Shown here piece by piece: positions 117 through 25,466 of a stretch of DNA of 28,075 bases. Position 1 is the stretch's first letter; the number at the start of each line of letters is the position of its first letter. Where the stretch lies: IMG/VR virus record IMGVR_UViG_2585427787_000005; one strand, 5' to 3'. Made by a program: the position numbers and the translations under genes. The DNA is from a virus (lineage: Duplodnaviria; Heunggongvirae; Uroviricota; Caudoviricetes). Under the pieces are notes generated by a model that did no database searches, was not told the origin of the DNA, and was given only the letters and a program-made list of their open reading frames with translations.

Positions 117-138
117 TCCTCACGCTCCATAAATGACA

Positions 139-158: not shown

Positions 159-176
159 CACATAAAACATTTTGCA

Positions 177-1489: not shown

Positions 1490-1494
1490 GGGAT

Positions 1495-2193
1495 TTACTG
1501 CGAAAGTTTGTTAATGGAAAGGAAGCCGCCAAAGTTGCCGACGTTATTGCGGAACTTACAACCGCTCAGGCATTTGCTGCATTTATCCTTCGTGATATCG
1601 GACGTTGGCTGGTCATATTCATCCGCGACTGCCGGACCGCTATAACCGCACTCATCACCGCGATAGGTCCAGGTGCAGGTGTTGGCCAGCATGATACGTC
1701 CCGGAAAAACAGCACCGTCCGTTTCCGTCGGCGTGGACAGTACAAAAGAGGCACTCACCGCGCTCAGTTCGCTGCACTGCTCAATGCGCCAGCGGCTGAT
1801 CACCTCCTGCTCCGGATCGGCGCCACTGTTTCCGTTGACGAAGTTCACCGCATCCAGAAAACGGGCGTAAACCTTACGCCGGACCACCGTTCCACCGACC
1901 AGACTCTGCAGATCTTCCGCCATCCCGGTGACCATACCGTACAGGTTAGAAACCGTCAGTGTGGGGCGCGTACTGGTGCCTTTGCCATTCAGTTCAAAAC
2001 CACTCCCCTGAATGGGATACGGCTGATACTGTCGCCCCTGCCAGGTGACCGGCTCACCTTTTTCGTTCTGCTCATTACAGAAAAAATAACGTTCTCCACC
2101 GACCTCTGTCAGGTCGATTTCCCAGAGCACCACGCTGGCCGACTGCTCCGCACGGGTGCATTCATTCAGTGTTTCCTGCCGGATATCCTGCAT
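1495..2193 (-). CDS. L: Tail tip assembly protein L
   Basis: 232-aa ORF MQDIRQETLNECTRAEQSASVVLWEIDLTEVGGERYFFCNE, recalled lambda gpL. Start overlaps the M stop. Confidence 0.93.
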   Translation of the reverse strand: MQDIRQETLNECTRAEQSASVVLWEIDLTEVGGERYFFCNEQNEKGEPVTWQGRQYQPYPIQGSGFELNGKGTSTRPTLTVSNLYGMVTGMAEDLQSLVGGTVVRRKVYARFLDAVNFVNGNSGADPEQEVISRWRIEQCSELSAVSASFVLSTPTETDGAVFPGRIMLANTCTWTYRGDECGYSGPAVADEYDQPTSDITKDKCSKCLSGCKFRNNVGNFGGFLSINKLSQ

Positions 2194-2522
2194 CAGTTCA
2201 CCACCTGTTCAAACTCTGCGCTGAACTCAACACGCAGCATACTGACCCGCGACGACCATTTTGCGCAGGTCACCTTTATCTGCCGCCACTCATAAGGCGG
2301 CGTCCACAGAAAGGATTTCCAGCCCCCGTGCTCTTCCAGAAACGACTCCAGTACCGTGGCCTCCTCACGGGGGACAGAAAGCGTCACGCTGTACGTTTTC
2401 AGGTTGGCATTCAGCCCGGCAGGCGCTCGCTGGGAATAGCCATCACCAAAGCGCACCTTTCTTACAGAAGGGACCGAAGCCACATCCATACCGGGTTTCA
2501 CTTTCCAGCGGAAGGTCTTCAT
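2193..2522 (-). CDS. M: Tail tip assembly protein M
   Basis: 109-aa ORF MKTFRWKVKPGMDVASVPSVRKVRFGDGYSQRAPAGL, recalled lambda gpM. ATGA overlap with the H stop. Confidence 0.93.
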   Translation of the reverse strand: MKTFRWKVKPGMDVASVPSVRKVRFGDGYSQRAPAGLNANLKTYSVTLSVPREEATVLESFLEEHGGWKSFLWTPPYEWRQIKVTCAKWSSRVSMLRVEFSAEFEQVVN

Positions 2523-5080
2523 CGTCCACCTCCGGAGAACAGGCCACCATCACGCATCTGTGTCTGAATTTCATCACGGGCACCCTTGCGGGCCATGTCA
2601 TACACTGCCTTCATCATCTGTGGACCTGGCAGACCATTCGTACCGTCGTTCTGAATCACCACGTGATTGTTCTGATTAAAATTAATGCCTTCAGCCCGCC
2701 GCATCTGCGCCGGACTTCCGGCACCGCCCACATAACCACCTTCCGCATAGCCCCGCATCAGGCGGTACAGGTTGCCCACGCCAATCCGGCTGGTTGCCTC
2801 CTTCGTGAAGACAAACTCACCACGGTGAACAATCCCCGCTGGCTCATATTTGCCGCCGGTTCCCGTAAATCCTCCGGTCGCAAAATGGAATTTCGCCGCA
2901 GCGGCCTGAATGGCTGTACCGCCTGACGCGGATGCGCCGCCACCAACAGCCCCGCCAATGGCGCTGCCGATACTCCCGACAATCCCCACCATTGCCTGCT
3001 TAAGCAGAATTTCTGTCATCATGGACAGCACGGAACGGGTGAAGCTGCGCCAGTTCTGCTCACTGCCGGTCAGCATCGCCGCCATATTCTGCGCAATACC
3101 ATCAAAGGTCTGCGCGGCTGCACTTTTAACCTGCGACATACTGTCCGTGGCGCTCTCTTCCCACTCACACCAGCCGGACTTCAGGCCTGCCATCCAGTTC
3201 CCGCGAAGCTGGTCTTCAGCCGCCCAGGTCTTTTTCTGCTCTGACATGACGTTATTCAGCGCCAGCGGATTATCGCCATACTGTTCCTTCAGGCGCTGTT
3301 CCGTGGCTTCCCGTTCTGCCTGCCGGTCAGTCACCCCCCGGCTTTTCGCATCAATGGCGGCCCGTTTTGCCCGTTGCTGCTGTGCGAATTTATCCGCCTG
3401 CTGCGCCAGCGCGTTCAGGCGCTCCTGATACGTAACCTTGTCGCCAAGTGCAGCCAGCTGGCGTTTGTACTCCAGCGTCTCATCTTTATGCGCCAGCAGG
3501 GATTTCTCCTGTGCGGATAGCTGGCGACGTTGTGCCGCCTCCTCCAGTACCGCGAACTGATTTTCAGCCTTCCACAAATCCCGGCGCTGCTGGCTGATTT
3601 TCTCATTCGCTCCGGCATGCTTCTCCAGCGTCCGGAGTTCTGCCTGAAGCGTCAGCAGGGCAGCATGAGCACTGTCTTCCTGACGATCGCCCGCAGACAC
3701 TTTCACGCCGGACTGTTTCGGCTTTTTCAGCGTCGCTTCATAGTCCTTTTTCGCCGCCGCCATCAGCGTGTTGTAATCTGCCTGCAGAATTTTCCCGTCC
3801 TTCAGTGCCTTGTTCAGTTCTTCCTGACGGGCGGTATATTTCTCCAGCGGCGTCTGCAGGCGTTCATAAGCCTTCTGCGCCTCTTCGGTATATTTCAGCC
3901 GTGACGCTTCGGTATCGCTCTGCTGCTGCGCATTTTTGTCCTGTTGAGTCTGCTGCTCAGCCTTCTTTCGGGCGGCTTCAAGCGCAAGACGGGCCTTTTC
4001 ACGATCATCCCAGTAACGCGCCCGCGCTTCATCGTTAACAAAATAATCATCCTTGCGCAGATTCCAGATGTCGTCTGCTTTCTTAAACGCAGCCTCTGCC
4101 TTAATCAGCATCTCCTGCGCGGTATCAGGACGACCAATATCCAGCACCGCATCCCACATGGATTTGAATGCCCGTGCTGTCCTGTCTGCCCAGGTCTCCA
4201 GCGTGCCCATGTTCTCTTTCAGGCGGCGGGTCTGGTCATCAAACCCTTTCGTTGCGGCCTCGTTCGCCGCCTGCAATGCCCCGGCTTCATCGCCGGAACG
4301 CTGCAACTGAGCAACATACGCAATCTGCTCCGCCGTCACGTTATGGAACTGGCGTGCCATCGCCGTCAGCCCCGACGTCGGGTCTGTGGTCAGCTTCCCG
4401 AAGGCTTCAGCGACCTTGTCCACCTCCACGCCGGATGCAGAGGAGAAACGCGCCACACTCTGGCTGATGGACGCAATCTGAGCCTCACCGCTTACCCCCG
4501 CCTTAACCAGTGCGCTGAGTGACTCGCTGGTCTGGTTAAACGTCAGCCCTGCCGCCTGCCCGGCTCTGGACAGGGCCAGAATACGATCTGCCGTCAGTCC
4601 CGCCTGATTGCCGGAAAGGACCAGCGTTTTGTTGAAATCGGACAGGGTTGAGTTGCCCTGATACCAGGCATACGCCAGCGCACCGGTCGCCACCGCCAGC
4701 GAGGTGGCCCCCACCATCGGCAGGGTGATCGCACCGGCAAGCCCCCTGAACATGGGGATCATCCCGCCGAAGGAGTCCTTAACCTGACCCCCCTGTTGCA
4801 GCAGGATCAGCCACGGACTTTGCCCGCCTGCAAGCTGCGTGGCCACGTCGGTGAACTGTGCAGGCAGCATACGCATGGCGGCTTTATACTGCCCGACGGA
4901 AATCCCCGCTTTCTGTGCAGCCAGCGCCTGTCGGCTCAGCGACTGTTCAACGACTGCCGCTGTTTTTTTCGCATCAGTTTCCGTACCGGAAAAATGACGC
5001 CTGACTCTGGCCATCTGCTCGTCAAATCTGGCCGCATCCAGACTTAAATCAACGACCAGATCGCCTACCGGTTCAGCCAT
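2519..5080 (-). CDS. H: Tail tape-measure protein H
   Basis: 853-aa ORF MAEPVGDLVVDLSLDAARFDEQMARVRRHF, the same length as lambda gpH. Long coiled-coil middle and Gly-rich C-terminal region. Confidence 0.95.
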   Translation of the reverse strand: MAEPVGDLVVDLSLDAARFDEQMARVRRHFSGTETDAKKTAAVVEQSLSRQALAAQKAGISVGQYKAAMRMLPAQFTDVATQLAGGQSPWLILLQQGGQVKDSFGGMIPMFRGLAGAITLPMVGATSLAVATGALAYAWYQGNSTLSDFNKTLVLSGNQAGLTADRILALSRAGQAAGLTFNQTSESLSALVKAGVSGEAQIASISQSVARFSSASGVEVDKVAEAFGKLTTDPTSGLTAMARQFHNVTAEQIAYVAQLQRSGDEAGALQAANEAATKGFDDQTRRLKENMGTLETWADRTARAFKSMWDAVLDIGRPDTAQEMLIKAEAAFKKADDIWNLRKDDYFVNDEARARYWDDREKARLALEAARKKAEQQTQQDKNAQQQSDTEASRLKYTEEAQKAYERLQTPLEKYTARQEELNKALKDGKILQADYNTLMAAAKKDYEATLKKPKQSGVKVSAGDRQEDSAHAALLTLQAELRTLEKHAGANEKISQQRRDLWKAENQFAVLEEAAQRRQLSAQEKSLLAHKDETLEYKRQLAALGDKVTYQERLNALAQQADKFAQQQRAKRAAIDAKSRGVTDRQAEREATEQRLKEQYGDNPLALNNVMSEQKKTWAAEDQLRGNWMAGLKSGWCEWEESATDSMSQVKSAAAQTFDGIAQNMAAMLTGSEQNWRSFTRSVLSMMTEILLKQAMVGIVGSIGSAIGGAVGGGASASGGTAIQAAAAKFHFATGGFTGTGGKYEPAGIVHRGEFVFTKEATSRIGVGNLYRLMRGYAEGGYVGGAGSPAQMRRAEGINFNQNNHVVIQNDGTNGLPGPQMMKAVYDMARKGARDEIQTQMRDGGLFSGGGR

Positions 5081-5911
5081 ACCGGACTCCTCCTGCGATC
5101 CCTTCTGATACTGTCATCAGCATTACGTCATCCTCCGTCATGTCCGCCACATCCGGGGAAGCGGGGATAACTTCATTCCCGTCCGGGCCAAAACGAACGC
5201 CTCCGGCAAGCCCTGCCGCTTTCTGCATCAGCACATCATCTTCAGGCTCTTCGTCAGCCTCGCGCCGGTTCAGCAGACTGAAATCCAGCGGATGCATATC
5301 CGGATCGCTGAAAAACAGGCTGAGCACGGTGTACGTCAGCCCGGAAAAGTGCATATCCAGCAGAACATCATGAAAATAATGGGTACTGTAAAAGCGGTGC
5401 CAGTCGGCATACTCCGTGGATGACATCCCGGCAAGCATGGCACGCCAGTCGGGTCGCCCCATCTCGCGCGCCAGTTTCAGGGCAAAACTCAGCTCACCGT
5501 CGAACACTTTCCCGCAGAAACAGGCTCTGCAGGCCCGGCGTCCTCTGCCTGTTCAGGGGCATCATTCACCACAAACTCATACATACCAGACAGCCGGTAC
5601 ACCACGTTTTCAGCATGAGAAATTGCCTCCGTGGGCCAGGTGGTAAGCACTTCCTGCTCAATCTGTTTAACGGCTTCATTCATGGACGGCATCTGCGTCT
5701 TCTGCGGATGGTTATGCCACAGGGACATCGCCACCAGAAACGCGCCGGTTCTGATGGCGTCTTCCACAGTAAACTTCCGGTTGCTGTCTGACTCCGCCTG
5801 TTCTGCCTGCCGTTTCATCAGGGCGAGATGCTCAATGCGCTGCAGGGCTGACAGTTCAGAAAGCGTGACGGTCACACCGTTATGTTCAAATGATTCGGTT
5901 TTCAGGAACAT
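5073..5911 (-). CDS. T: Tail assembly chaperone G-T fusion made by a programmed -1 ribosomal frameshift (G frame 5911..5510, T frame 5507..5073)
   Basis: T-frame ORF (144 aa, ...FDGELSFALKLAREMGRPDWRAMLAGMSS) has no independent ATG. The slippery heptamer G GGA AAG sits at 5513..5507 on the minus strand, six codons before the G stop. Frame arithmetic confirms the T frame is -1 relative to G. Confidence 0.85.
5489..5911 (-). CDS. G: Tail assembly chaperone G
   Basis: 140-aa ORF MFLKTESFEHNGVTVTLSELSALQRIEHLALMKRQAEQ, recalled lambda gpG. Confidence 0.93.
   Translation of the reverse strand: MFLKTESFEHNGVTVTLSELSALQRIEHLALMKRQAEQAESDSNRKFTVEDAIRTGAFLVAMSLWHNHPQKTQMPSMNEAVKQIEQEVLTTWPTEAISHAENVVYRLSGMYEFVVNDAPEQAEDAGPAEPVSAGKCSTVS
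5507..5513 (-). promoter_or_regulatory. G-T programmed frameshift slippery site GGGAAAG
   Basis: Plus strand reads CTTTCCC at 5507..5513. In the G frame this is G GGA AAG, and the -1 shift enters the open T frame. Confidence 0.8.
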
Positions 5912-5926
5912 CGCTGACTCTCCGGA

Positions 5927-6667
5927 TTAACTGGCGGTGACGGTGATTTCTGCAACCGCAGCAAACTCACCATTACCGGATACGACCGGAATGTTGACCT
6001 TACCTGCAGCAACGCCATTCACGGTGATGGTCATACCACTGACCGACACGGTGGCTTTTGTTTTATCCGCTGACACTGCACGGAAGCTCTTGTCGGTTGC
6101 GCCTTCCGGCTGGAAGGCCACGGTCAGCGTGGTGCTCTTCCCTTTCACTACGGAAGCGCTGGCTGGCGTCACGGTCATACCGGTTGCCGCTGTTACCGTG
6201 CTGCGATCTTCTGCCATCGACGGACGTCCCACATTGGTGACTTTCACCGTGCGGGTGATCACTTCCTTCGCCGTCACCGCCTTACCGATACTGCTGACCC
6301 AGCCACGGAACACATCGACCGTGCCGTTCGGGAAGCGGATTTTATAGGCACGGGTATCGCCTTCATTAAACCACGCCAGCAGCGCCTGCTGCCCCTGCTC
6401 TCCGGGCATCCACGCCAGCGTGAAGCTGGTATCTCCGGCAGATTTCTGCCCCTGCCCGCTCGCAGTCCAGTCTGCATCTTCATCATCGAGATAGCTGTCG
6501 TCATAGGACTCAGCGGTCAGTTCGCCGGGCGTCAGGTCTTTAACTTTTGCCAGACGCGACCAGTCAACGTCTGAAAGCGGATTCGCATAAGGGTCACCGC
6601 TCCCCTTATAAACCCACAGGGTGGTCCCGGCACCTTTCACCGGCATTACAGGATTTGGTACAGGCAT
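5927..6667 (-). CDS. V: Major tail tube protein V
   Basis: ORF contains [30 protein letters not shown] (246 aa from ATG at 6667). C-terminal Ig-like region. Recalled lambda gpV. Confidence 0.93.
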
Positions 6668-6674
6668 AGCGTCC

Positions 6675-7070
6675 TCACATTTCATAGGTAATGACATAAG
6701 TCAGATCGGCTGAACTCCACAGGCCCGCATCATCGTCGCGCCGGTAGTCATAGCCGCTGGCCACCATACTGGTGATCAAATCTGACAGTGCCGGGATATC
6801 ACTCATCACCGGATAAATCCGGGACTCCATCCACGCATCCAGCTCTGAATCCGGCACCTGAGCAGGCAGGAAAACTTCGATATGCAGCTCCGCCTGCCAG
6901 GTATCGCTGTCCAGCTCTTCGCCCGTGTATTCAGCGCCGGTGAGATAAACGGCAACTGCCGGAAAATCCGCCTCATCAAAAACAGCGGGGCGACCATCAA
7001 AAAACGTCGCCCCGGTGTCATGCTTCTCCAGTGCATCCAGTACGGCTGCACGGAGTTCAGTATGTTTCAT
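6675..7070 (-). CDS. U: Tail terminator protein U
   Basis: 131-aa [46 protein letters not shown], recalled lambda gpU. ATGA overlap with Z. Confidence 0.93.
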
Positions 7071-7645
7071 CGCTTTATTACCATCCTCAGTTGATGCTGC
7101 AGCGCATAGCCCAGCTCTTTCGGAAGACGCTCACGCCGTATCCGCTCAATATTCTGTTTAAACGCCGTGGTCAGCGGCACCGCCATCGGGATTTTCACCA
7201 CATCAATGGGGTAACGGTTTTTCCCGGCCACACGCTGCATGACATGCCAGCGGCCATTTTTCAGTTGCTGAATAAACGCGCCGGGAATACGACGGTTTCC
7301 CACCACAAGCACGCTGCCGCCACCTTTCAGGGCTGAACGCTGCCCCTTTTTACGACGCCTGCGTCGGGACAGGACAATCCGCGCGTTACCCAGCTTTATT
7401 ACGGGCAAATCCCCCCGGTTAACCTTGATTCTGGCCTGCGGATTTTTGACCGTGGCCCTTTTCAGCCTGGCCCTTTCCTTTACCAGTTTCCGGCGTACCT
7501 TTGTCTCACGGGCAACCTGTGACGCCGACTGCGATATCGCGGATGAAGCAACGCGGTTAATGGCCATTGCGGCGGCACCAGGCACCGCCGTTTTGCTGAT
7601 ACGGCTGAGGTTTTCAACGGCCTGCTCAAGACCTTTTATGGCCAT
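7067..7645 (-). CDS. Z: Tail completion protein Z
   Basis: 192-aa ORF MAIKGLEQAVENLSRISKTAVPGAAAMAINRVASSAISQSASQ, recalled lambda gpZ. Confidence 0.93.
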   Translation of the reverse strand: MAIKGLEQAVENLSRISKTAVPGAAAMAINRVASSAISQSASQVARETKVRRKLVKERARLKRATVKNPQARIKVNRGDLPVIKLGNARIVLSRRRRRKKGQRSALKGGGSVLVVGNRRIPGAFIQQLKNGRWHVMQRVAGKNRYPIDVVKIPMAVPLTTAFKQNIERIRRERLPKELGYALQHQLRMVIKR

Positions 7646-7656
7646 ACATCCCCCTT

Positions 7657-8010
7657 TCAGCGGCGACGGTTAACGGCAGGCGGTACGCCCCGCCCAAGCC
7701 AGAGATGACAGCTTCCACCATCATCCGGCGAAACCCGGTCTATCCAGAAGTTTTCCTCACCGATGGTCAGCGTGTCTCCACGCCGCAGTTGCCGCACATC
7801 ATCAGTCCGGACAAACAGGGACGGGCTGGAGCCTTCAACGCGTACGCCCTGTCCGGCATAGCTGATATTTTCAGGGTCATCAAAAACACCACGTATTACT
7901 GCGCCGGACTGCTCACCGGATGTCATGGTGGCTGACGTTCCCATGTACCCACGTATCGTTTCATCGGCGCGGGCAATGGCAGCATCGAACAGGTTATCAA
8001 AATCAGCCAC
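7657..8010 (-). CDS. FII: Head-tail connector / head completion protein FII
   Basis: 117-aa ORF MADFDNLFDAAIARADETIRGYMGTSATMTSGEQSGAVIRG, recalled lambda gpFII. Confidence 0.93.
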   Translation of the reverse strand: MADFDNLFDAAIARADETIRGYMGTSATMTSGEQSGAVIRGVFDDPENISYAGQGVRVEGSSPSLFVRTDDVRQLRRGDTLTIGEENFWIDRVSPDDGGSCHLWLGRGVPPAVNRRR

Positions 8011-8021
8011 AGCGCCTCCCG

Positions 8022-8417
8022 TTATTGCATTCTGGCCAGGCCACGTTCTGTCATTTCGGCTGCCACACCGGCAGAGACACGAAACGCCGTTCCCGGCAGC
8101 ACAAATGCCACAGGTTCATCCCGCGTGGCGTGAAGTGCATCGGTATGCAGCGTCACCAGTGCCACAACCGTGACCAGAGCAGCCGTATCAGTCACGGTAT
8201 CCGTCTGTGCTGATACCACCTCATTTTCATGTCCGGTCAGCGCATTTTCCGGTCTGAGAGGGGTATCCTGACCGGCAGCGTCATCCGTGTCATCAAGCTC
8301 TTCTTCCAGCTCTGCCACACGGAGCGCCAGTTCTTCTTTCGTCCCCGTCAGGCTGACATCACGGTTCAGTTGCTCACCCAGCGACCGGAGACGGGCAATC
8401 AGTTCATCTTTCGTCAT
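8022..8417 (-). CDS. FI: DNA-packaging / head completion protein FI
   Basis: ORF contains MTKDELIARLRSLGEQLNRDVSLTGTKEELALRVAELEEEL. ATG at 8417 is preceded by GGAGGAG. The longer ORF-track start is an upstream non-ATG extension. Confidence 0.9.
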   Translation of the reverse strand: MTKDELIARLRSLGEQLNRDVSLTGTKEELALRVAELEEELDDTDDAAGQDTPLRPENALTGHENEVVSAQTDTVTDTAALVTVVALVTLHTDALHATRDEPVAFVLPGTAFRVSAGVAAEMTERGLARMQ

Positions 8418-8458
8418 GGACTCCTCCACAGAGAGAAAATGGCCCCGAAGGGCCACGA

Positions 8459-9484
8459 TTACGCCAGTTGTACGGACACGAACGCATCAGGGTCAGCCAG
8501 CAGCATCAGCGGTGCTGACTGAATCATGGTGAACTCACGCGCCGGATCGCCGGTGGTCACCCAGTTTTTCGGGTAGCGGGCAGAGGCGTTAATGCCTTCG
8601 CGCTGTGCGTCCGCATCCTGAATGCAGCCATAGGTGCGCAGACCGCGTGCCTGAGTGTTCCCCAGCACCATCGTGTTGTCCGGCAGGAAGTTCTTTTTGA
8701 CGTCGTTTTCCACGTACTGTCCGGAATACACGACGATCGCCACATCGCCATACATCCCCTTATAGGACACCGCTTCGCCCAGGTCTTTTACCGCTGTCTC
8801 CAGCTCGGAATTAGAGCCGCGACGGGTATCCAGCTTCTCCCTGACGGCTTTGAAGGAACGGAACAGCGCCCAGCCTTTCGGATCGAACACGATGATATTC
8901 ACCACACCGCTGGCGTTCAGCGCGTAGGCTTCGATATCGTCGGTCGGGTCATACGTGGACTTGTCACGCTTGCTCCACTCCGTGCCGCCAGACTGTGTGA
9001 TGTTATTCGCTTCACTGCGGCCCATATCCACCTCAACCGGATCGAAGGCTTCACCGGTCATGGTGTATTTGCCCTTGAGCACGGCAGAAACTGCCTGCAT
9101 CTCTTCGACCTGAGCAATGGCCAGCTCTTCGTCTCGCATGTTCTGCATGATGATGCGACGGCGGCGGTAAGCCGGGTCCGCCAGATTCTGTGGATCTTCA
9201 TCCGGCAGGCGACGCAGGGTCATCTGCGGATTCACCTCATGCTTGGGTTTGACATATCCCGGCGTAAATTCAGAGGTGGAGCCGCCACGGGAACGGATAA
9301 CCTCACCGGAAACAATCGGCGAAACGTACAGCGCCATGTTTACCAGTCCCGGAATTTGTGAGAGATAGACTTTCTCCGTAGTGAAGGGATAGCTCTCACG
9401 GAAAAAGAGACGCAGAAACAGCGGATCAAACTTAAATTTCTGCTCATTTGCCGCCAGCAGCTGGGCGGTTGTGTACATCGACAT
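8459..9484 (-). CDS. E: Major capsid protein E
   Basis: 341 aa from MSMYTTAQLLAANEQKFKFDPLFLRLFFRESYPFTTEKVY, recalled lambda gpE. ATG at 9484. Confidence 0.95.
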   Translation of the reverse strand: MSMYTTAQLLAANEQKFKFDPLFLRLFFRESYPFTTEKVYLSQIPGLVNMALYVSPIVSGEVIRSRGGSTSEFTPGYVKPKHEVNPQMTLRRLPDEDPQNLADPAYRRRRIIMQNMRDEELAIAQVEEMQAVSAVLKGKYTMTGEAFDPVEVDMGRSEANNITQSGGTEWSKRDKSTYDPTDDIEAYALNASGVVNIIVFDPKGWALFRSFKAVREKLDTRRGSNSELETAVKDLGEAVSYKGMYGDVAIVVYSGQYVENDVKKNFLPDNTMVLGNTQARGLRTYGCIQDADAQREGINASARYPKNWVTTGDPAREFTMIQSAPLMLLADPDAFVSVQLA

Positions 9485-9539
9485 AAAAAAATCCCGTAAA
9501 AAAAGCCGCACAGGCGGCCTTTAGTGATGAAGGGTCAGG

Positions 9540-9872
9540 TTAAACGATGCTGATTGCCGTTCCGGCAAACGCGGTCCGTTTTTTCGCCTCGTCGCTGGCA
9601 GCCTCCGGCCAGAGCACATCCTCATAACGGAACGTGCCGGACTTGTAGAACGTCAGCGTGGTGCTGGTCTGGTCAGCAGCAACAGCAAGAATGCCAACGG
9701 CAGCACCGTCGGTGGTGCCATCCCACGCAACCAGCTTACGGGTGGAGGTATCCGGCATCAACGGAGTCATTGCTGGCGTTTTCTTACTCAATCCGCCGGG
9801 CGCGGTTGCGGTATGAGCCGGGTCACTGTTGCCCAGCGGCTGGTAATGGGTAAAGGTTTCTTTGCTCGTCAT
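9540..9872 (-). CDS. D: Head decoration protein D
   Basis: 110 aa from [27 protein letters not shown], recalled lambda gpD. ATG at 9872. Confidence 0.93.
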
Positions 9873-9881
9873 AAACATCCC

Positions 9882-11181
9882 TTACACTGGTGTGTTCAGC
9901 AAATCGTTAACGGCATCAGATGCCGGGTTACCTGAAGCCAGCGGTGCCGGTGCCCCCTGCATCAGACGATCCAGCGCAGTGTCACTGCGCGCCTGTGCAC
10001 TCTGTGGTGCTGCGGCCAGAATGCGGCGGGCCGTTTCCACGGTCATACCGGGGGTTTCGGCCAGCACGCGTGCCTGTTCTTCGCGTCCGTGAGCCTCCTC
10101 ACAGTTGAGGATCCCCATAATGCGGCTGTTTTCTGCCGCAACCGCTGCGGTGATCTGCGCGTTCACGTCCGGCTGCGCCGCGCTGGCGTTTTCGCCCTCC
10201 GTCGCTGGCACCACGTCAGTAACGTCAGCCTGCGAAGCAGTGGCTGAAACAGTTGTTGATTGAGTCTCTTTGGTCATTCGCCCTCCTGAGAGACGGGATT
10301 TACGTGCATCCAGTGCATCACGCATGACGGTGATCGCATCGGTGCTGTTAACAAGTTCATCAGCCAGTCCGGCATCAATGACCTCCTGACCGCTGTACAC
10401 TGCAGCCTCGGTATCCAGCACAGCCTGCACGGACAGGCCGGTATATGCCGACACCTTCTGCGCAAACATCTGGCGGGTTGCGTCCATCCGGGACTGCAGT
10501 GTCTCCCGGACGTCATCCGGAAGATGGCTGTAGGGGTTGCCATCCACCTTATGGCTGCCGCTGTAAATCAGCGTGATTTCCACACCCTGTTTCTCCAGCG
10601 CAGCACCGTAATTACTGTGAGCCATCATGACGCCGATGGAGCCTGTCCGGGCGGTCTGCGTGACCAGACGCCGGGAGGCGGCACTGGCAAGCAACTGACC
10701 TGCACTGCAGTTCATGTCGTTGGCAAGCGCCCATACCGGTTTTATGTCACGCACACGGGCGATGATGTCAGCGCAGTCAAATGCCCCCGCCACCATCCCG
10801 CCGGGCGTGTCCATATCGAGCAGAATGCCGTCCACCATCGGATCGCTGGCAGCCTGTTGCAGACGGGCGATAATGCCGTTGTAACCGGTCATCCCCGAGT
10901 ACGGCTGCAGCGCCCGCGTCCGGCTGACCAGCGTGCCGGACACCGGCAGCACGGCGATGCCGTTCATGACCTGATAACTGCGGGCCTGTCGTGGTCCGTC
11001 ATCATCACCGGATAATGCCAGCGTCGCGAGTGCCTCCTGGGCAGTCAGGCTGTCGCCGGATACCGCATCCGTCAGGCGGCTGATCCCAAGCTGGCCTGCA
11101 AGCGCACAAAAGAAAACCCGCGCATAGGCGGGTTCAAGCATCAGCGGCTCATTAAAAGCCATGCTGGCAATATGCGGGAGA

Positions 11182-11201
<20 letters not shown>
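9882..11201 (-). CDS. C: Capsid assembly protease C, with scaffold Nu3 nested in-frame in its 3' part
   Basis: GTG start at 11201 gives VTAELRNLPHIASMAFNEPLMLEPAYARVFF, the recalled gpC N-terminus. It overlaps the B stop by 20 nt as in lambda. The longer ORF-track call is an upstream extension. Confidence 0.9.
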
Positions 11202-14882
<3,681 letters not shown>

Positions 14883-14908
<26 letters not shown>

Positions 14909-15428
14909 TCAGCAACCCCGGTATCAGTTCATCCAGCGCGGCTGCTTTGTTCATGGCTTTGATGATATCCCGTTTCAGGAAATCAACATGTCGGTTTTCC
15001 AGTTCCGGAAAACGCCGCTGCACCGACAGGGGGATCCCGTCGAGAATACTGGCAATTTCACCTGCGATCCGCGACAGCACGAAAGTACAGAATGCGGTTT
15101 CCACCACTTCAGCGGAGTCTCTGGCATTTTTCAGCTCCTGTGCGTCGGCCTGCGCACGCGTAAGTCGATGGCGTTCGTACTCAATAGTCCCTGGCTGGAG
15201 ATCTGTCTCGCTGGCCTGCCGCAGTTCTTCAACTTCCCGGCGCAGCTTTTCGTTCTCAATTTCAGCATCCCTTTCGGCATACCATCTTATAACGGCGGCA
15301 GAGTCATAAAGCACCTCATTACCCTTGCCACCGCCTCGCAGAACGGGCATTCCCTGTTCCTGCCAGTTCTGAATGGTACGGATACTCGCACCGAAAATGT
15401 CAGCCAGCTGCTTTTTGTTGACTTCCAT
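14883..15428 (-). CDS. Nu1: Terminase small subunit Nu1
   Basis: 181-aa ORF MEVNKKQLADIFGASIRTIQNWQEQGMPVLRGGGKGNEVLYDSAAVIRWYAERD, recalled lambda gpNu1 with its N-terminal winged-HTH region. Confidence 0.95.
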
Positions 15429-15604
15429 TGTTCATTCCACGGCCAAAAACAGAGAAAGGAAACGACAGAGGCCCAAAAGCTCGTTTTCAGCACCTGTCGT
15501 TTCCTTTCTTTTCAGGGGGTATTTTAAATAAAAACATTAAGTTACGACGAAGAAGAACGGAAATGCCTTAAACCGGAAAATTTTCATAAATAGCGAAAAC
15601 CCGC
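15429..15604 (-). promoter_or_regulatory. cosB region (terminase small-subunit binding sites between cosN and Nu1)
   Basis: Position between the cohesive-end sequence and the Nu1 start. Sequence colinear with the recalled lambda left end (GGGCGGCGACCTCGCGGGTTTTCGCTATTTATGAAAATTTTCCGGTTTAAGGCG... on the minus strand). Confidence 0.75.
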
Positions 15605-15616
15605 GAGGTCGCCGCC
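15605..15616 (-). other. cosN, the 12-nt cohesive-end sequence GGGCGGCGACCT of lambda
   Basis: Plus strand 15605..15616 is AGGTCGCCGCCC, whose reverse complement is GGGCGGCGACCT. It is flanked by the lambda right-end sequence ...GCGGGTCCTTTCCGGCGATCCGACAGGTTACG. Confidence 0.9.
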
Positions 15617-15816
15617 CCGTAACCTGTCGGATCGCCGGAAAGGACCCGCAAAATGATAATAATTATCATCTATATGTCACAACGTGCATCTACGCCATCA
15701 AACCACGTCAAATAATCAATTATGACGCAGGTATCGTATTAATTGATCTGCATCAACTTAACGTAAAAACAACTTCAGACAATACAAATCAGCGACACTG
15801 AATACGGGGCAACCTC

Positions 15817-16011
15817 ATGTCAACGAAGAACAAAACCCGCAGAACAACAACCCGCAACATCCGCTTTCCTAACCAAATGATTGAACAAATTAACATCGCT
15901 CTTGAGCAAAAAGGGTCTGGGAATTTCTCAGCCTGGGTCATTGAAGCCTGCCGTCGGAGACTAACGTCAGAAAAGAGAGCATATACATCAATCCAAAGTG
16001 ATGATGGATGA
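15817..16011 (+). CDS. Small hypothetical protein (64 aa) between cos and bor, with a possible ribbon-helix-helix-like DNA-binding fold
   Basis: ORF MSTKNKTRRTTTRNIRFPNQMIEQINIALEQKGSGNFSAWVIEACRRRL, ATG preceded by a purine-rich stretch. Basic N-terminus then a strand-helix-helix-like pattern. Fold assignment is inference. Confidence 0.6.
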   Translation: MSTKNKTRRTTTRNIRFPNQMIEQINIALEQKGSGNFSAWVIEACRRRLTSEKRAYTSIQSDDG

Positions 16012-16373
16012 ACATCCCGGTTTCTTCCACCATCGCACCGGAAAAGCGACTATGAGGGTAACCCTGCGTCTGTCAGCACAGTAAAACCCGGTGTGCATCG
16101 TTTTTGATTATTCCCGCACACTCACGCAGAAGGAATTCCCCGTCGGGCTACGGTCATGGTTAATGCGGGAATACGGCGACGATACAGCGCAGCTAAAAGG
16201 GTAATAGACGGATAGACCGGTTTATTTCATTCCACAGGATTCTGAGTGTCCCCAACTTCCTCCAATAGTCTGAGCGTACACCTATATAGTTTTAATTTTC
16301 ATCAATCCATTTAACTATCGTTTAATTGTTGTCACATAGGATTCTGCCGTTTTTAACAATGCAGGATAATAAG

Positions 16374-16667
16374 ATGAAAAAAATGTTGTTTTCTGCCGCT
16401 CTGGCAATGCTTATTACAGGATGTGCTCAACAGACGTTTACTGTTGGAAACAAACCGACAGCAGTAACACCAAAGGAAACCATCACCCATCACTTCTTCG
16501 TTTCGGGAATTGGACAGGAGAAAACTGTTGATGCAGCCAAAATTTGTGGCGGCGCAGAAAATGTTGTTAAAACAGAAACCCAGCAAACATTCGTAAATGG
16601 ATTGCTCGGTTTTATTACTTTAGGCATTTATACTCCGCTGGAAGCGCGTGTGTATTGCTCACAATAA
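16374..16667 (+). CDS. bor: Bor lipoprotein (serum-resistance-associated outer-membrane lipoprotein)
   Basis: 97 aa from MKKMLFSAALAMLITGCAQQTFTV with lipobox LITGC, recalled lambda Bor. ATG at 16374; the longer ORF-track start is an upstream extension. Convergent with Rz as in lambda. Confidence 0.92.
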   Translation: MKKMLFSAALAMLITGCAQQTFTVGNKPTAVTPKETITHHFFVSGIGQEKTVDAAKICGGAENVVKTETQQTFVNGLLGFITLGIYTPLEARVYCSQ

Positions 16668-16698
16668 TTGCATGAGTTGCCCATCGATATGGGCAGCT

Positions 16699-17160
16699 CT
16701 ATCTGCACTGCTCATTAATATACTTCTGGGTTCCTTCCAGTTGTTTTTGCATAGTGATCAGCCTCTCTCTGAGGGTGAAATAATCCTGTTCAGCGGTGTC
16801 TGCCAGTCGGGGGGAGGCTGCATTATCCACGCCGGAGGCGGTGGTGGCTTCACGCACTGACTGACAGACTGCTTTGATGTGCAACCGACGACGACCAGCG
16901 GCAACATCATCACGCAGAGCATCATTTTCAGCTTTCGCATCAGCTAACTCCTTCGTGTATTTTGCATCGAGCGCAGCAACATCACGCTGACGCATCTGCA
17001 TGTCAGTAATTGCCGCGTTCGCCAGCTTCAGTTCTTTGGCATTTTTGTCGCGCTGGGCTTTATAGGTAATGGCGTTATCACGGTAATGATTAACAGCCCA
17101 TGACAGGCAGACGATGATGCAGATAACCAGAGCGGAGATAATCGCGGTTACTCTGTTCAT
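16699..17160 (-). CDS. Rz: Inner-membrane spanin Rz
   Basis: 153 aa from [41 protein letters not shown], recalled lambda Rz. ATG at 17160 overlaps the R stop (ATGA). Confidence 0.92.
16758..16940 (-). CDS. Rz1: Outer-membrane lipoprotein spanin Rz1, embedded in the +1 frame of Rz
   Basis: 60-aa [27 protein letters not shown] with lipobox VVGC and a proline-rich tail [15 protein letters not shown], entirely inside Rz. Confidence 0.9.
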
Positions 17161-17654
17161 TGCTGACCCCACAAACAGATTTCACGCTCAATCTCACGAC
17201 GAGTCATGAGACCTTTCCATTGCTTACCGCCAGCATATGTCCAGCGACGTAACTGATCACATGCGCCTTTGATATCGCCCTGGTTTATTTTGCGAAGAAG
17301 CGTCGATGTTCTGAAATTGCCAGCACCCACGTTGTAAACGAATGAGTAAAGAGCGCCGCGCGTTGTTTCCGGTATATCGACTTCGATGTATGGGTTAATT
17401 TGTCTGGCGACAGTGGCAAGGTCTTTATTCAAGAGTGCTTTGCATTCTGCTTTGGTATACGTTTTACCGAGCATGATGTCTTTTCCTGTATGCCCGTGAC
17501 ATACGGTCCATACACCAACAATATCTTTGTATGGTATGTAGCTGACACCTTCCAGACCATCGTTACCACTTGGGCCAGTGATTAACACTGATGCTATAGC
17601 AATTGCTCCGCCACCAATAGCAGCAGCAACGGCTTTTCGTAATGATGGAGGCAT
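17157..17654 (-). CDS. R: SAR endolysin (phage-21-type, lysozyme-like), not the lambda R transglycosylase
   Basis: 165-aa [47 protein letters not shown]: a Gly/Ala-rich N-terminal signal-anchor-release helix followed by a lysozyme-like domain. Matches the recalled phage 21 R protein. Confidence 0.9.
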
Positions 17655-17869
17655 TATTCACCTCTCGCAGCCTTGCGCTTATCTTCTTTAATCTTGAAAT
17701 AAAGGTTTGTCAGGTACGTCAGCAGGCCAAATACCAGGCTACCCAGCACACCTATTGCTGCCCACTGTGAGGGCGTGACTTTATCGAGCAGCTGTAAAAA
17801 CCAGTAACCGGCACTACCTGCTGAGGTGCCATAGGCGACACCCGTTGTTAACTTATCCATGGATTTCAT
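17654..17869 (-). CDS. S: Pinholin S (phage-21-type, with MKSM dual-start motif)
   Basis: 71 aa from [74 protein letters not shown] at 17869, second Met at codon 4. Stop overlaps the R start. Confidence 0.9.
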
Positions 17870-18458
17870 AACCCCACCTCGCAGACAAAGCGGGTGTAAA
17901 TTGAGGGAATACAACGTATCGCAAAAAAGCAGAAACGTAACAGACTCGGAGTCAGTGAATAACTCAGGTATTGAGTTATCAGCTAATATCGAGACTCAAA
18001 AAATGGAAAAACCAGCTCGACGGCGGGTTTAAGCTGTGTGACGAAGTAACCACTCTTAACAGCATAACCAATTTTTTACGTACGTAAACCACTGAATGAT
18101 ATTTATGAGAATGCTACCGAGTGTTCAAAACACCACCACAAATACATAAGAAAACCTCAACAAATAACCAATAAATAATTTCCGGCGTTATTTTTAGTTA
18201 ATTTAAATTAAACCATCGAATTATAGATCCCCCCATAAATAACAGGCATTAATATAAATTAGCTAATAGGTTTATTTTTGTTCAAATAAGAGCCATAAAT
18301 AGGTTTCGATAGAAAAAGTTCAGATAAAAATAGAGATCTACTTCACAAATTAAATGAGAAACTAAAACTTACATCTTGAAATAATCACATTGATTAGATG
18401 AATATTTATCGCGCAGTGACATCATTTTTTAATAATAGTTCAAAAAAAAGGGCTCACG

Positions 18459-19541
18459 ATGAAAAAATTAACAGTGGCAATTTCTGCTGTAGCTGCATCA
18501 GTACTGATGGCGATGTCTGCTCAGGCAGCTGAAATTTATAATAAAGACAGTAACAAGCTGGATCTGTACGGGAAAGTTAATGCTAAGCACTACTTCTCCT
18601 CTAATGATGCAGATGATGGTGATACTACTTATGCCCGTCTTGGCTTCAAAGGTGAAACCCAAATCAACGATCAACTGACTGGTTTCGGTCAGTGGGAATA
18701 TGAATTCAAAGGCAACCGCGCTGAATCTCAAGGTTCCTCCAAAGATAAAACCCGTCTTGCCTTCGCTGGCCTGAAATTCGGTGACTACGGCTCCATCGAT
18801 TACGGCCGTAACTACGGTGTAGCATACGACATCGGTGCGTGGACTGACGTCCTGCCAGAATTCGGTGGTGACACTTGGACTCAAACAGATGTGTTCATGA
18901 CTGGTCGCACCACTGGTGTTGCAACTTATCGTAACAACGACTTCTTTGGTCTGGTTGATGGTCTGAACTTTGCTGCTCAGTATCAGGGTAAAAATGACCG
19001 CACTGACGTAACTGAAGCTAATGGTGATGGTTTCGGTTTCTCCACTACTTATGAGTATGAAGGATTCGGTGTAGGTGCAACCTATGCTAAATCTGATCGC
19101 ACTAATAATCAGGTTATCTACGGTAACAACGGTCTGAATGCTTCTGGTCAAAATGCTGAAGTATGGGCAGCTGGTCTGAAATATGATGCGAACAACATCT
19201 ATCTGGCCACCACCTATTCTGAAACCCAGAACATGACTGTTTTTGGTAATAACCATATTGCCAACAAAGCACAAAACTTCGAAGCTGTTGCACAATATCA
19301 GTTCGACTTCGGCCTGCGTCCATCCGTTGCTTACCTGCATTCTAAAGGAAAAGACTTGGGTGTTTGGGGTGATCAGGACCTGGTTGAATATGTTGATGTA
19401 GGTGCAACCTATTACTTCAACAAAAATATGTCCACTTTTGTTGACTACAAAATCAACCTGATTGATAAGAGCGATTTCACGAAAGCATCTGGCGTTGCTA
19501 CCGATGATATCGTTGCTGTAGGTATGGTTTACCAGTTCTAA
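18459..19541 (+). CDS. nmpC: Outer-membrane porin of the OmpC/NmpC/Lc family (lysogenic-conversion moron between Q and S)
   Basis: 360-aa ORF with signal peptide [23 protein letters not shown] followed by [16 protein letters not shown] and C-terminal ...VAVGMVYQF, the classic porin terminal Phe. Opposite strand to the late genes, in the position of DLP12 nmpC / PA-2 lc. Confidence 0.93.
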
Positions 19542-19552
19542 TTTGATTACTA

Positions 19553-19587
19553 AAAGATATGTTGTGGGAGGCTTTGCCTCCCCAACA
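19553..19587 (-). terminator. Candidate tR'-like terminator of the short late leader transcript
   Basis: Minus strand reads TGTTGGGGAGGC-aaa-GCCTCCCACAACA followed by TATCTTTT, about 150-180 nt downstream of the Q stop. The expected spacing is recalled from lambda biology. Confidence 0.4.
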
Positions 19588-19702
19588 TATAAGTGGCTCC
19601 CTCAAGCCACTTCCTTTAGAAGCACAACCTTGCTTCTAACTATACAAACCTTCTGTTATATATTACCCTTTATTTTTGGGGGCGTTTCAACGCCCCATTT
19701 TT
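19561..19702 (+). ncRNA. Candidate structured small RNA immediately 3' of the porin gene (four tandem hairpins; IpeX-like by position)
   Basis: Hairpins read from sequence: GGGAGGC-ttt-GCCTCCC (19566..19582), GTGGCT-ccctca-AGCCAC (19593..19610), GAAGCA-caacct-TGCTTC (19619..19636), GGGGCG-tttcaa-CGCCCC plus T tract (19679..19702). The IpeX assignment is from recalled DLP12 literature, not from alignment. Confidence 0.4.
19679..19702 (+). terminator. Rho-independent terminator downstream of the porin gene
   Basis: GC-rich 6-bp stem GGGGCG/CGCCCC with 6-nt loop, followed by ATTTTT. Confidence 0.65.
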
Positions 19703-19729
19703 AATAACTTTTAGTAAATAATTGGCGTA

Positions 19730-20113
19730 TTAATTAGAGTTATTAACAACGATATCCATCTCTAACCGGATATCTAATGCCATTAACATCCCTTCAATTA
19801 TGCCCTCAGCCTTCTGTAACCTTTTCCCGATATAACCATCAGAGCAGCAATGCTTACCTGCCAGTGACATGAATGTCATACCGACTACATAATAATCTAC
19901 TAATAAATCGTGCAAATCGCTGTTGTTCTTTTTCAGACGGGCCATGCACCCGCAAATGATCATCGCGTCATCGTCACAACATTGCGGGCGAGATTTTACT
20001 TTTGAAGGAATTAATCCCTTAAAACCGGCGGCAATGGACGACCAGGTCACATCTTCATGATTATTAGCCGCCCACGCTCCCCAACGCTCAAGAACCATCT
20101 GAATATCACGCAT
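19730..20113 (-). CDS. Q: Late-gene antiterminator Q (QuuD-like)
   Basis: 127 aa from [33 protein letters not shown] with Cys-rich putative zinc-binding segment [17 protein letters not shown] at 20113; the ORF-track call is longer. Confidence 0.85.
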
Positions 20114-20198
20114 CAACTTACTCCACAAAAATCAGACCAGAACGCCAATTACAAGCAAAAATCAATAAAACAGTATTAGTTGATTGTTATCTCTGACT

Positions 20199-20339
20199 TC
20201 ATACTCCTGCTCCTGTCAGGGTTTTGGCGTAATTCTTCAGTATTCGGTAATCGGTCAAAACATAACCGGGGAAACGATATAAGCGCAGACGCCCCCAGCG
20301 GTGGCGAAGGAGTTCTGCCATATATGACTCACACATCAT
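20199..20339 (-). CDS. ylcG: Small protein YlcG-like (46 aa), missing from the ORF track
   Basis: Hand translation of the minus strand gives [49 protein letters not shown] at 20339 overlaps the rusA stop. Position between rusA and Q as recalled for DLP12 ylcG. Confidence 0.7.
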
Positions 20340-21797: not shown

Positions 21798-22307
21798 TTA
21801 GTCTGCCAAGTCTTCCTCAGTCGCAACTGGGTAATTCCAAATATCAAAAAAAGCTATAGCCTCCTGCCATTTGCTCCATAAGTTATCAAGTACTTGTGTA
21901 GGTTCCGTACTTTTAAAAACAGAATCAGCCGCATCACCGTTATGAACTTCCTCGTACAGTTCCATTATTAGCAGATTAACAAAGTACTGTTTCAACATTA
22001 ATGCCTGATTACCTTCTTTCTGCTGGCTATCCTGCTTGATGAGCTCCATCGCCCGTACTAGGCACCTGATGATATCCGCTGCATCATTAACGCTCCATTC
22101 AGATCCGCGCTTATCTTTAGCTGATGAATTGGCTCTCTCAGCGCAAGCCTTTAAAGACTCATAAAGGTAAACTCTATTTTGTAGCTGCAGCGCTTTTTTT
22201 GACGTGCACCAACTTGCAAGCGCCGACCCCGCTGCGGCTAATGTGCCAAACGCAGAAATGCCTGCTGCTATTGCACTTAAGTCGGCACTGTCAAAGTTCC
22301 ACATCAT
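21798..22307 (-). CDS. Hypothetical membrane-anchored protein (169 aa), function unknown
   Basis: ORF MMWNFDSADLSAIAAGISAFGTLAAAGSALASWCTSKK with one predicted N-terminal transmembrane helix followed by a charged, probably helical domain. No family recognised by eye. Confidence 0.7.
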   Translation of the reverse strand: MMWNFDSADLSAIAAGISAFGTLAAAGSALASWCTSKKALQLQNRVYLYESLKACAERANSSAKDKRGSEWSVNDAADIIRCLVRAMELIKQDSQQKEGNQALMLKQYFVNLLIMELYEEVHNGDAADSVFKSTEPTQVLDNLWSKWQEAIAFFDIWNYPVATEEDLAD

Positions 22308-22542: not shown

Positions 22543-23151
22543 TTATTGCAACAGATTCTGACGGAAATATGGTAACACACGACTCCACTTATCATCCTGC
22601 CACGGTTGGAATTTTACATGCGCCGTTTCTCTGGCAAGGATTTCTCGCGCCCTGTTGAGTATCCGAGGATATTCTTGTTCGATTGAAGTGAATCTACCTG
22701 CTTCGCGATGCTCTGCGACCTGAAGAAGGGGCGTAACGTTCTGGCAGGCGGTTAACATCGTATCACTTGCTCGCCATAACCAGGCGAGTGTGCAAAGTTC
22801 GTTATCAGTGAATTGTTTTGTGATTGGGGATTGTTGAACTTCTCGATCGAGAATATCCAGAACCCAGCGGCGGAATTCTTTGGCCACAGGAGTACGAGCA
22901 AACATGGCGATCAAATGGGCTCCGCGAAGGCTAAATACTCGAGACTCCTGCATTCCACGAGGGGTGGTCACTTTGACCACCCTTGTCATCATATCTGTGA
23001 ATTCATCTGAGTGCCGAGAGTAAATGCGCTGAACTGCTTTATCGTCCGCATATTCCAGTGCTAAACCAACTTCAGTGGCAGTAAGCCAAATTCTGTTATT
23101 GTGGCAAATCGGGGTAAACGTCGTTTTGTGGAATGCTAATTGAGTAGTCAT
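22543..23151 (-). CDS. Bro-N-like domain protein (antirepressor / Roi-like family candidate)
   Basis: 202-aa ORF MTTQLAFHKTTFTPICHNNRIWLTATEVGLALEYADDKAVQRIYSRHSDEF...RVFSLRGAHLIAMFARTPVAKEFRRWVLDIL. Matches the recalled Bro-N consensus pattern (W-x-x-A-x-[DE]-V-x-x-x-L, then S-E-x-G-[LV]-Y-x-L-I, then A-x-x-F-x-x-W-V). Family assignment is by eye. Confidence 0.65.
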   Translation of the reverse strand: MTTQLAFHKTTFTPICHNNRIWLTATEVGLALEYADDKAVQRIYSRHSDEFTDMMTRVVKVTTPRGMQESRVFSLRGAHLIAMFARTPVAKEFRRWVLDILDREVQQSPITKQFTDNELCTLAWLWRASDTMLTACQNVTPLLQVAEHREAGRFTSIEQEYPRILNRAREILARETAHVKFQPWQDDKWSRVLPYFRQNLLQ

Positions 23152-23963: not shown

Positions 23964-25466
23964 ATGACTCAAACTCCTCTATTACTTGCAATCATATTTT
24001 TATTGGTTGTTCTTGTTCTTTATATAGCTGCAATCAAACGCATCAAAAAAATACAATTAGAATTAAGTGATAGCAATCAAAAAAATGAAGAATACAAATC
24101 TCGCTTTGCAGATTATTTTAATGTAGAAGAAGAATGTAAGAAGCTTATTGAGAAAACAGAGCAAGAATGCTCCATAATAAAAGAAGAATCCCTAAAAGTA
24201 AAAGAAAATGCCAATAATGAACTAACAAACACCATTGAAAAAATGGATGGTATCAATAAACAAATCCAAGAGCTAAGAAGAACTTATAAAGAGAAGAAAG
24301 AAATATATGATAAACTAGTAAGGCAAATTTCTATTTATTCAGAAGATGTTGAGCTAGCCGAACTAGGATTTTACGAACCTCATTTTAATTTTGAAGATTC
24401 AGAGCAATTTAAAAACAAAATAAAATCCATCAGGGATGAACAGAAATTAATGCTGCGGGATAAAACCCACTCTGGCGCAGTATATTGTACAACCCAATGG
24501 ACTGTTGAAGGCTCTCGAGCAGAGGGTAAAAAAATGACAGACAGAAATATCAGGCTAACTACTAGAGCATTTAATAATGAATGTGATGCTGCAATTAGCA
24601 ATTGCACGTGGAAAAACATCACTAAAATGGAAGAACGCATCACAAAGGCATTTGAGGCCATAAATAAACTAAACGAGCAAAATCACATATATATAAACAC
24701 TAAATACCTCAATAAAAAACTTGAGGAATTGTGGCTTACCCATGAATATCGTGAGCAAAAACAGAAAGAAAAAGAAGAACAGGCAGAAATAAGGGCACAA
24801 ATGAGAGAGGAGGAGCGTGCACAACGAGAAATAGAAAAGGCCATGCAAGACGCAGAGGCAGAAGAGCGCCGTTATAAAAAAGCAATTGAAGCTGCAAGAA
24901 AGGAAATGGAAAAAGTTACTGGTGACATGAAGCAGCGCCTCGAAAATCGCATTGCCGAACTAGAACAGAGTTTGTCGCAGGCTGAATCAAAGCATCAAAG
25001 AGCATTATCCATGGCACAACAAACCAAACAAGGTCATGTTTATATTATTTCGAACATAGGTTCTTTTGGGGAGAATGTTTATAAAATAGGCATGACACGA
25101 CGTCTTGATCCGCAAGACCGTGTAAATGAGCTCGGTGATGCATCTGTTCCTTTTATTTTTGATGTACATGCCATGATTTATTCGGAGGACGCTCCATCAT
25201 TAGAAAAAAAACTACATGATGTCTTCGATAAAAAGAGAGTCAATCTTGTAAATCGTAGAAAAGAGTTTTTCTATGTTACTCTGGATGAGATCAAAGAAGC
25301 TGTTAAAAAACACTCTGATTCAGAAATTGAATTTATTGAGACAGCAGTCGCAAAAGACTTTAATGAGTCATTGGCTATTCGTAATCATGAAAATAAAAAA
25401 AGTGACAACAGCAACTCATCAATTATACCTGAGCGAAAAACCCCAGAGTTTGCAGATGCAATTTAA
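23964..25466 (+). CDS. AT-rich cargo protein (500 aa): N-terminal transmembrane anchor, coiled-coil segments, central DUF4041-like region and C-terminal GIY-YIG-like (T5orf172-type) putative nuclease domain
   Basis: ORF MTQTPLLLAIIFLLVVLVLYIAAIKRIKK (transmembrane helix). Lys/Glu-rich coiled coils (e.g. EYREQKQKEKEEQAEIRAQMREEERAQREIEKAM). C-terminal GHVYIISNIGSFGENVYKIGMTRRLDPQDRVNELGDASVPFIFDVHAMIYSEDAPSLEKKLH has GIY-YIG-like spacing (VYI...10 aa...YKIG, then Arg, then Glu). Composition is visibly AT-rich against the flanking phage DNA, and the gene is on the opposite strand. Domain names are from recall. Confidence 0.85.
   Translation: MTQTPLLLAIIFLLVVLVLYIAAIKRIKKIQLELSDSNQKNEEYKSRFADYFNVEEECKKLIEKTEQECSIIKEESLKVKENANNELTNTIEKMDGINKQIQELRRTYKEKKEIYDKLVRQISIYSEDVELAELGFYEPHFNFEDSEQFKNKIKSIRDEQKLMLRDKTHSGAVYCTTQWTVEGSRAEGKKMTDRNIRLTTRAFNNECDAAISNCTWKNITKMEERITKAFEAINKLNEQNHIYINTKYLNKKLEELWLTHEYREQKQKEKEEQAEIRAQMREEERAQREIEKAMQDAEAEERRYKKAIEAARKEMEKVTGDMKQRLENRIAELEQSLSQAESKHQRALSMAQQTKQGHVYIISNIGSFGENVYKIGMTRRLDPQDRVNELGDASVPFIFDVHAMIYSEDAPSLEKKLHDVFDKKRVNLVNRRKEFFYVTLDEIKEAVKKHSDSEIEFIETAVAKDFNESLAIRNHENKKSDNSNSSIIPERKTPEFADAI

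Follow-up and report, generated by a model that had tools for sequence, protein, structure and literature searches.

The lysis cassette of a lambda-like Escherichia coli prophage is very probably of the standard phage 21/DLP12 type

The lysis genes in the window, i.e. the whole stretch of 28,075 nucleotides analysed here, form the standard lysis cassette of the phage 21/DLP12 family in a lambda-like Escherichia coli prophage, a reading to which we assign a probability of about 93%. Cassettes made of a pinholin, a SAR endolysin and the Rz/Rz1 pair are already described and very common. A sequence-only reading of the same DNA had taken the cassette for a mosaic of phage 21 and lambda genes, and this needs a correction: lambda-like Rz/Rz1 genes are characteristic of the phage 21/DLP12 family as a whole, and therefore nothing here is a new hybrid.

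Composition of the lysis cassette

The proteins S, R, Rz, Rz1 and Bor match the five Pfam families expected for them (5/5), all far above the cut-offs. The class II pinholin gene S occupies 17654..17869 on the minus strand as a 71-codon open reading frame giving the antiholin form S71, and the pinholin form S68 (17654..17860, minus strand) shares this frame and starts from the ATG at codon 4 (Met4); the family is PF04971 ('Bacteriophage P21 holin S', 2e-35). R (17157..17654, minus strand) encodes a 165-aa SAR endolysin of the GH24 'true lysozyme' type (PF00959, Phage_lysozyme, 2.8e-45). The i-spanin Rz (153 aa) is encoded at 16699..17160 on the minus strand (PF03245, 3.4e-54), and the o-spanin lipoprotein Rz1 (60 aa; 16758..16940, minus strand) is read in the +1 frame inside Rz (PF06085, 9.3e-20). 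Convergent with Rz lies bor (16374..16667, plus strand), a moron for a bor/iss-type outer-membrane lipoprotein (PF06291, 6.4e-31). At the S/R junction, GAATAATGCC, the two genes meet in TAATG, the last A of the S stop codon TAA being the A of the R ATG, and at the R/Rz junction, CAGCAATGAAC, the start codon of Rz overlaps the stop codon of R in ATGA (17157..17160, minus strand). The gene features named in the sequence-only reading, i.e. a 71-aa pinholin with MKSM, a SAR endolysin and the overlaps, are thus all present on the minus strand where it had placed them.

The S protein begins with MKSMDK (17869..17852), identical to the start of S21 and holding the dual start Met1-Lys2-Ser3-Met4. Its score against PF04971 is 121 bits with a cut-off of 26, which places it in the S21 family; 61 of its 71 residues are identical to S21 (86% at the amino acid level, E = 2e-47; 76% at the nucleotide level), and the protein is 100% identical in amino acids to the copy of DLP12 essD that 434B carries. 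No alignment was obtained between S and lambda S using BLASTP. A mean Kyte-Doolittle hydropathy of at least 1.0 is reached solely by the TMD2 region, which is preceded by a weakly hydrophobic segment, and TMD2 contains the motif G40xxxS44xxxG48, as expected of a two-TMD pinholin. Pang et al. reportedly assigned G40xxxS44xxxG48 to the face of the pore-lining TMD2 and described TMD1 as releasable and weakly hydrophobic.

We predict from the MKSM motif that both S starts would be used, and the S71/S68 pair is annotated likewise in phage 21 and 434B. With a dual-start motif of this kind, the antiholin is the longer product and has one additional positive charge at its N terminus (PMC9636201). RNA folding of the dual-start region (17835..17905, minus strand) gave no structure that beats shuffled sequences (z = -0.66), and the same holds for the equivalent region of phage 21 (z = -0.38). 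With 10 of its 71 residues changed relative to S21, S could time lysis differently from phage 21.

R is 98.8% identical to R21 in amino acids (164 of 166 alignment columns, the stop included), with residues 1-90 identical, and is 98.8% identical to RrrD of DLP12; position 91 is E in place of the K found in R21 and RrrD. Among solved structures, 4ZPU (RrrD) and 3HDE/3HDF align with the whole length of the protein (E ~1e-111); 3HDE is deposited under the name 'Lysozyme', and we take 3HDE/3HDF to be R21. The lysozyme triad E-X8-D-X5-T and the features of SAR domains have been defined previously (PMC9239132). A pattern search found the triad in R as E35-X8-D44-X5-T50, and residues 8-27 are 65% Gly/Ala/Ser/Thr, in keeping with an N-terminal SAR helix. 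We infer that R would be exported in a Sec-dependent manner, tethered to the membrane, and released and activated on depolarisation. BLASTP of R against lambda R detected no similarity, the best E value being 4.0. The proposal that R is a phage-21-type lysozyme and not the lambda transglycosylase hence agrees with our alignments; it was to fall if R proved closer to lambda R than to phage 21 R, and we saw the opposite.

The Rz gene is identical to lambda Rz at 456 of 462 nucleotides and equally so to phage 21 Rz (98.7%), and for Rz1 the nucleotide identity is 99.5% with phage 21 and 98.9% with lambda. Rz has an N-terminal TMD at residues 4-20 and the cysteines Cys99 and Cys152, and Rz1 has the lipobox VVGC with Cys20, a further Cys29 and a Pro-rich mature part. 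Rz1 lies wholly within Rz at a frame offset of 1, as in a two-component embedded spanin. The residues Cys99 and Cys152 of Rz and Cys29 of Rz1 are identical to those in lambda; according to Berry et al., these are said to be the periplasmic cysteines that form intermolecular disulfides. Phage 21 itself has Rz and Rz1 genes that are 98.7% and 99.5% identical to those of lambda in nucleotides, a likeness that for Rz rests on our own alignment plus PMC6139136. Lambda and phage 21 alike require RzRz1 (PMC6139136).

Homology to lambda and phage 21

Alignment with the lysis regions of lambda and phage 21 was proposed in the sequence-only reading as the way to locate recombination breakpoints. No lambda homology was found from 25735 (ren) to 17161, and it resumes precisely at the R/Rz ATGA overlap, the Rz ATG at 17160 corresponding to lambda 45966. 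From there the homology covers Rz, Rz1 and bor, and after a gap it restarts at 16028 and extends past cos (15617/15618). Positions 15617..1 of the window align with lambda 1..15620 at 97.8% identity, from cos and Nu1 to the start of J. The late region is indeed lambda-like, as had been claimed, with 97.8% for cos and the virion genes, 98.7% for Rz and 93.5% for bor in nucleotides. The block without homology to lambda begins at ren, ends with R and spans ~8.6 kb, its left edge lying ~7.9 kb upstream of S. The claim that the junctions fall at gene boundaries thus stands on the R/Rz side, where lambda homology starts from the Rz ATG, and fails on the S side, where lambda homology is lost up to ren (25735).

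The relationship to phage 21 is continuous over the same region. A single colinear HSP covers 17870..16083 at 95.3% identity, starting one base ahead of the S ATG and ending ~290 bp past bor. We counted informative sites, i.e. the positions at which phage 21 and lambda differ, and the ratios of sites agreeing with phage 21 to those agreeing with lambda are 3:3 in Rz, 15:4 in bor and 140:2 in the 290 bp upstream of bor. The bor gene as a whole is 97.3% identical to phage 21 and 93.5% to lambda in nucleotides. Since bor and its flank side with phage 21, the whole block is colinear with a donor of the 21/DLP12 type; and the informative sites, together with the Rz/Rz1 genes that phage 21 itself carries, mean that a crossover with a lambda parent at R/Rz is neither needed nor indicated. 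A new recombinant of phage 21 and lambda, with separate lineages for S/R and for Rz/Rz1, was considered and rejected on these site counts, on the Rz/Rz1 genes of phage 21 and on the single HSP to phage 21.

The S allele is far more diverged from phage 21 (76% in nucleotides, 86% in amino acids) than the adjacent R (97.6% in nucleotides). Along the alignment with phage 21, the nucleotide identity is ~70-80% in S and rises to ~100% from ~10 nt before the S stop. This step near the S stop lies in the region of the R ribosome-binding site, GAGG, which is common to the two sequences. As judged from these alignments, the S/R boundary is a joint relative to phage 21 only, at the level of alleles and not exactly at the gene boundary.

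We also searched a probe made of Rz plus the 3' end of R against phage records and took a spread sample of 455 matching records. Many of them begin to match at query base 301, which is the Rz ATG, including lambda, O276, HK542, ECP1, g341c, HZ41 and Sf6. By this comparison of sequences, the joint at the Rz ATG is recurrent among lambdoid phages in general, and because phage 21 itself has lambda-like Rz/Rz1, we regard it as an old joint common to the whole 21/DLP12 family. The first ~117 nt of Rz alone (query 301-417) are common to the window and many lambdoid phages. A part of the 5' end of Rz (17044..17091, minus strand) corresponds to the 'bsq7 boundary sequence' annotated in Sf6 (37312..37359), whose record places 'boundary sequence bsq7' 70-117 nt into Rz. 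The 5' stretch of Rz would fit a conserved linker with clustered mosaic joints. A paper on gene co-transfer in lambdoid phages (PMC9836094) holds nothing on holin-endolysin-spanin linkage.

Prevalence and alternative readings

Of 5426 complete E. coli genomes, 2143 cover at least 80% of the 4-kb segment comprising Q, porin, S, R, Rz and bor, and so do many sequenced lambda-like phages; the best E. coli matches are 99.9% identical and annotated as quuD, ompC (porin), essD, rrrD, rzpD and iss. The 1.8-kb region holding the lysis cassette, bor and flanks is present by at least 80% in 35 phage records. In four sequenced lambda-like phages, Turner, PhiR68_2, PhiR34_1 and PhiR30_1, the matches extend over 82-84% of a 25-kb part of the window, with an identity of ~97-98%. 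The lambda-type head and tail ORFs are all present with lambda-like lengths. Given these matches and the full set of head and tail ORFs, the window represents a lambda-bodied and apparently intact relative of DLP12, within its 28 kb.

Under one alternative, the cassette would be a recent hybrid, in which a 21-like parent supplied S and R, a lambda-like parent supplied Rz/Rz1, bor and the virion genes, and the crossovers fell at gene boundaries. Such a history could account for the onset of lambda homology at exactly the Rz ATG, for the 97.8% identity of cos and the virion genes to lambda and for the 456 of 462 nucleotides that Rz shares with lambda. However, phage 21 Rz is equally near (456/462), the Rz/Rz1 genes of phage 21 and lambda being themselves 98.7% and 99.5% identical; bor and the 290 bp beyond it side with phage 21 at the informative sites (15:4 and 140:2); the upstream lambda homology is lost up to ren (25735) and not at S; and the identical arrangement occurs in thousands of E. 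coli genomes. The special combination of 21-type S/R genes with lambda Rz/Rz1 that the sequence-only reading had seen is not supported, since the Rz/Rz1 genes that phage 21 itself carries are nearly those of lambda. On these alignments we consider the hybrid reading largely refuted and a recent hybrid origin extremely improbable.

It is also unlikely, though somewhat less so, that the cassette is a domesticated remnant, like the defective DLP12 prophage of K-12, which the host would retain for roles in cell-wall turnover, vesicle production or biofilms and not for the release of phage. The gene set is of the DLP12 type, and the DLP12 lysis module of K-12 is reported to be conserved and transcribed and to modulate outer-membrane vesicle production (PMC7918800), which would be in line with such a role. 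But, unlike K-12 DLP12, the window retains head and tail ORFs of lambda-like length, cos, O, P, ren and Q, colinear with lambda at 97.8% identity, and 82-84% of a 25-kb part of it aligns with sequenced phages that are viable, Turner, PhiR68_2 and PhiR34_1 among them. This would rather fit a functional or recently functional prophage.

Late transcription and the proposed lysis pathway

Upstream of S lies an intact porin gene (18459..19541, plus strand), an nmpC/ompD-like moron encoding 360 aa (PF00267, 3e-152), and beyond it the gene for a late antiterminator Q of the QuuD (DLP12) type (19730..20113, minus strand; PF06530, 9.7e-54). The Q locus is annotated as quuD in a 99.9%-identical E. coli locus and has no homology to lambda, i.e. 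it is not lambda Q. The porin gene is antisense between Q and S, the same position being occupied in DLP12/434B, and late transcription must therefore cross it to reach S. The spacer between the divergent starts of S and the porin gene (17870..18458) is 590 bp long and AT-rich, with a GC content of ~0.32. A consensus promoter and terminator scan of 16200..20300 gave three promoter-like sites where 9.0 were expected by chance, and did not locate pR' or tR'.

We considered a scenario, prompted by the diverged S allele joined to an almost identical R, in which the pinholin 'lysis clock' was swapped as a unit separately from the SAR endolysin, and in which the antisense porin gene might also modulate late read-through and lysis timing in this prophage family. 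We hold this scenario to be highly improbable.

The pinholin/SAR-endolysin pathway has been described for phage 21 (PMC6139136; PMC9636201). The mechanism proposed here is taken from that paradigm, based on near-identity to the characterised proteins, and would run as follows. The QuuD-type Q would presumably antiterminate late transcription so that it extends through S, R and Rz/Rz1. The MKSM dual start would give the pinholin S68 and the antiholin S71, and R, exported by Sec, would be kept inactive, its Gly/Ala-rich SAR helix tethering it in the inner membrane. At the programmed time the pinholin would form small heptameric channels and collapse the proton-motive force. Pinholin channels are small (~2 nm) and heptameric, and depolarise the membrane without releasing soluble endolysin. 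The SAR helix would then exit the membrane, R would refold into an active lysozyme (E35/D44/T50) and degrade the murein, and the Rz/Rz1 spanin complex would finally disrupt the outer membrane.

Genes outside the cassette

A 500-aa ORF at 23964..25466 (plus strand), with a low GC content of 0.30-0.40, is encoded on the other strand from the phage genes, with ren on one side and the nin-like genes on the other. It has the Pfam domains DUF4041 plus T5orf172/MUG113, and PADLOC matches it over its full length to PD-Lambda-1 (E = 1.9e-198), a gene known from prophages for defence against phages; it occupies the place of emrE-ybcK-ybcL-ybcM in K-12 DLP12 and in strain 442/2. In the nin-equivalent region, a 202-aa ORF (22543..23151, minus strand) is antirepressor-like with Bro-N/P22_AR_C, and a 169-aa ORF (21798..22307, minus strand) gave no Pfam or PADLOC match. 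Between bor and cos, a 64-aa DUF3950 gene of the ylcI/ynfO type (15817..16011, plus strand) is found in place of lambdap78 and lambdap79 of lambda. Homology to lambda is missing from ~16320 to 16028, save for a weak patch of 82%.

Comparison with known systems

Phage 21 (OL657228, 39866..41361) has the same S71/S68-R-Rz-Rz1-bor order and overlaps, the MKSM start, the SAR endolysin and the embedded spanin, and the gene lengths of 216, 498, 462, 183 and 294 nt are shared with the window. The two differ upstream of S, where phage 21 has pR', tR' and two tRNA genes and the window has the antisense porin gene and the QuuD-type Q. A tRNA scan of the window found none, the two pre-S tRNA genes of phage 21 being absent.

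The DLP12 late region was viewed through 434B (OL657227) and E. coli strain 442/2. The Q-to-lysis region of 434B is a replacement by the DLP12 cryptic prophage of E. coli K-12 (PMC9119081), and because of this 434B serves as a proxy for DLP12. The DLP12 arrangement quuD-nmpC-essD-rrrD(ybcS)-rzpD/rzoD-borD corresponds to Q-porin-S-R-Rz-bor of the window. The DLP12 segment in 434B is colinear with the window from Q to cos, at 94.3% identity over 3.9 kb, and strain 442/2 is 99.9% identical to the window over 4 kb. There are differences too: the porin gene is intact in the window and split by IS5 in K-12 DLP12/434B, and the 5' end of Rz is 97-100% identical to phage 21/lambda compared with 85-92% to the K-12 copy. 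K-12 DLP12 presumably lacks the full lambda-type virion genes, which the window keeps.

Lambda, with its S105/S107-R-Rz-Rz1-bor genes, shares with the window the order of the three-step cassette and the ATGA overlap of R and Rz. However, lambda S is a canonical holin with three TMDs and lambda R is a soluble transglycosylase, whereas the window encodes a pinholin and a SAR lysozyme, and the lysis pathway therefore differs: in lambda large holes free a cytoplasmic enzyme, and in systems of the window's type depolarisation activates a membrane-tethered one. Lambdoid mosaicism is seen here in textbook form, and for phage 21, the system that the cassette resembles, the pinholin/SAR-endolysin pathway has been experimentally dissected.
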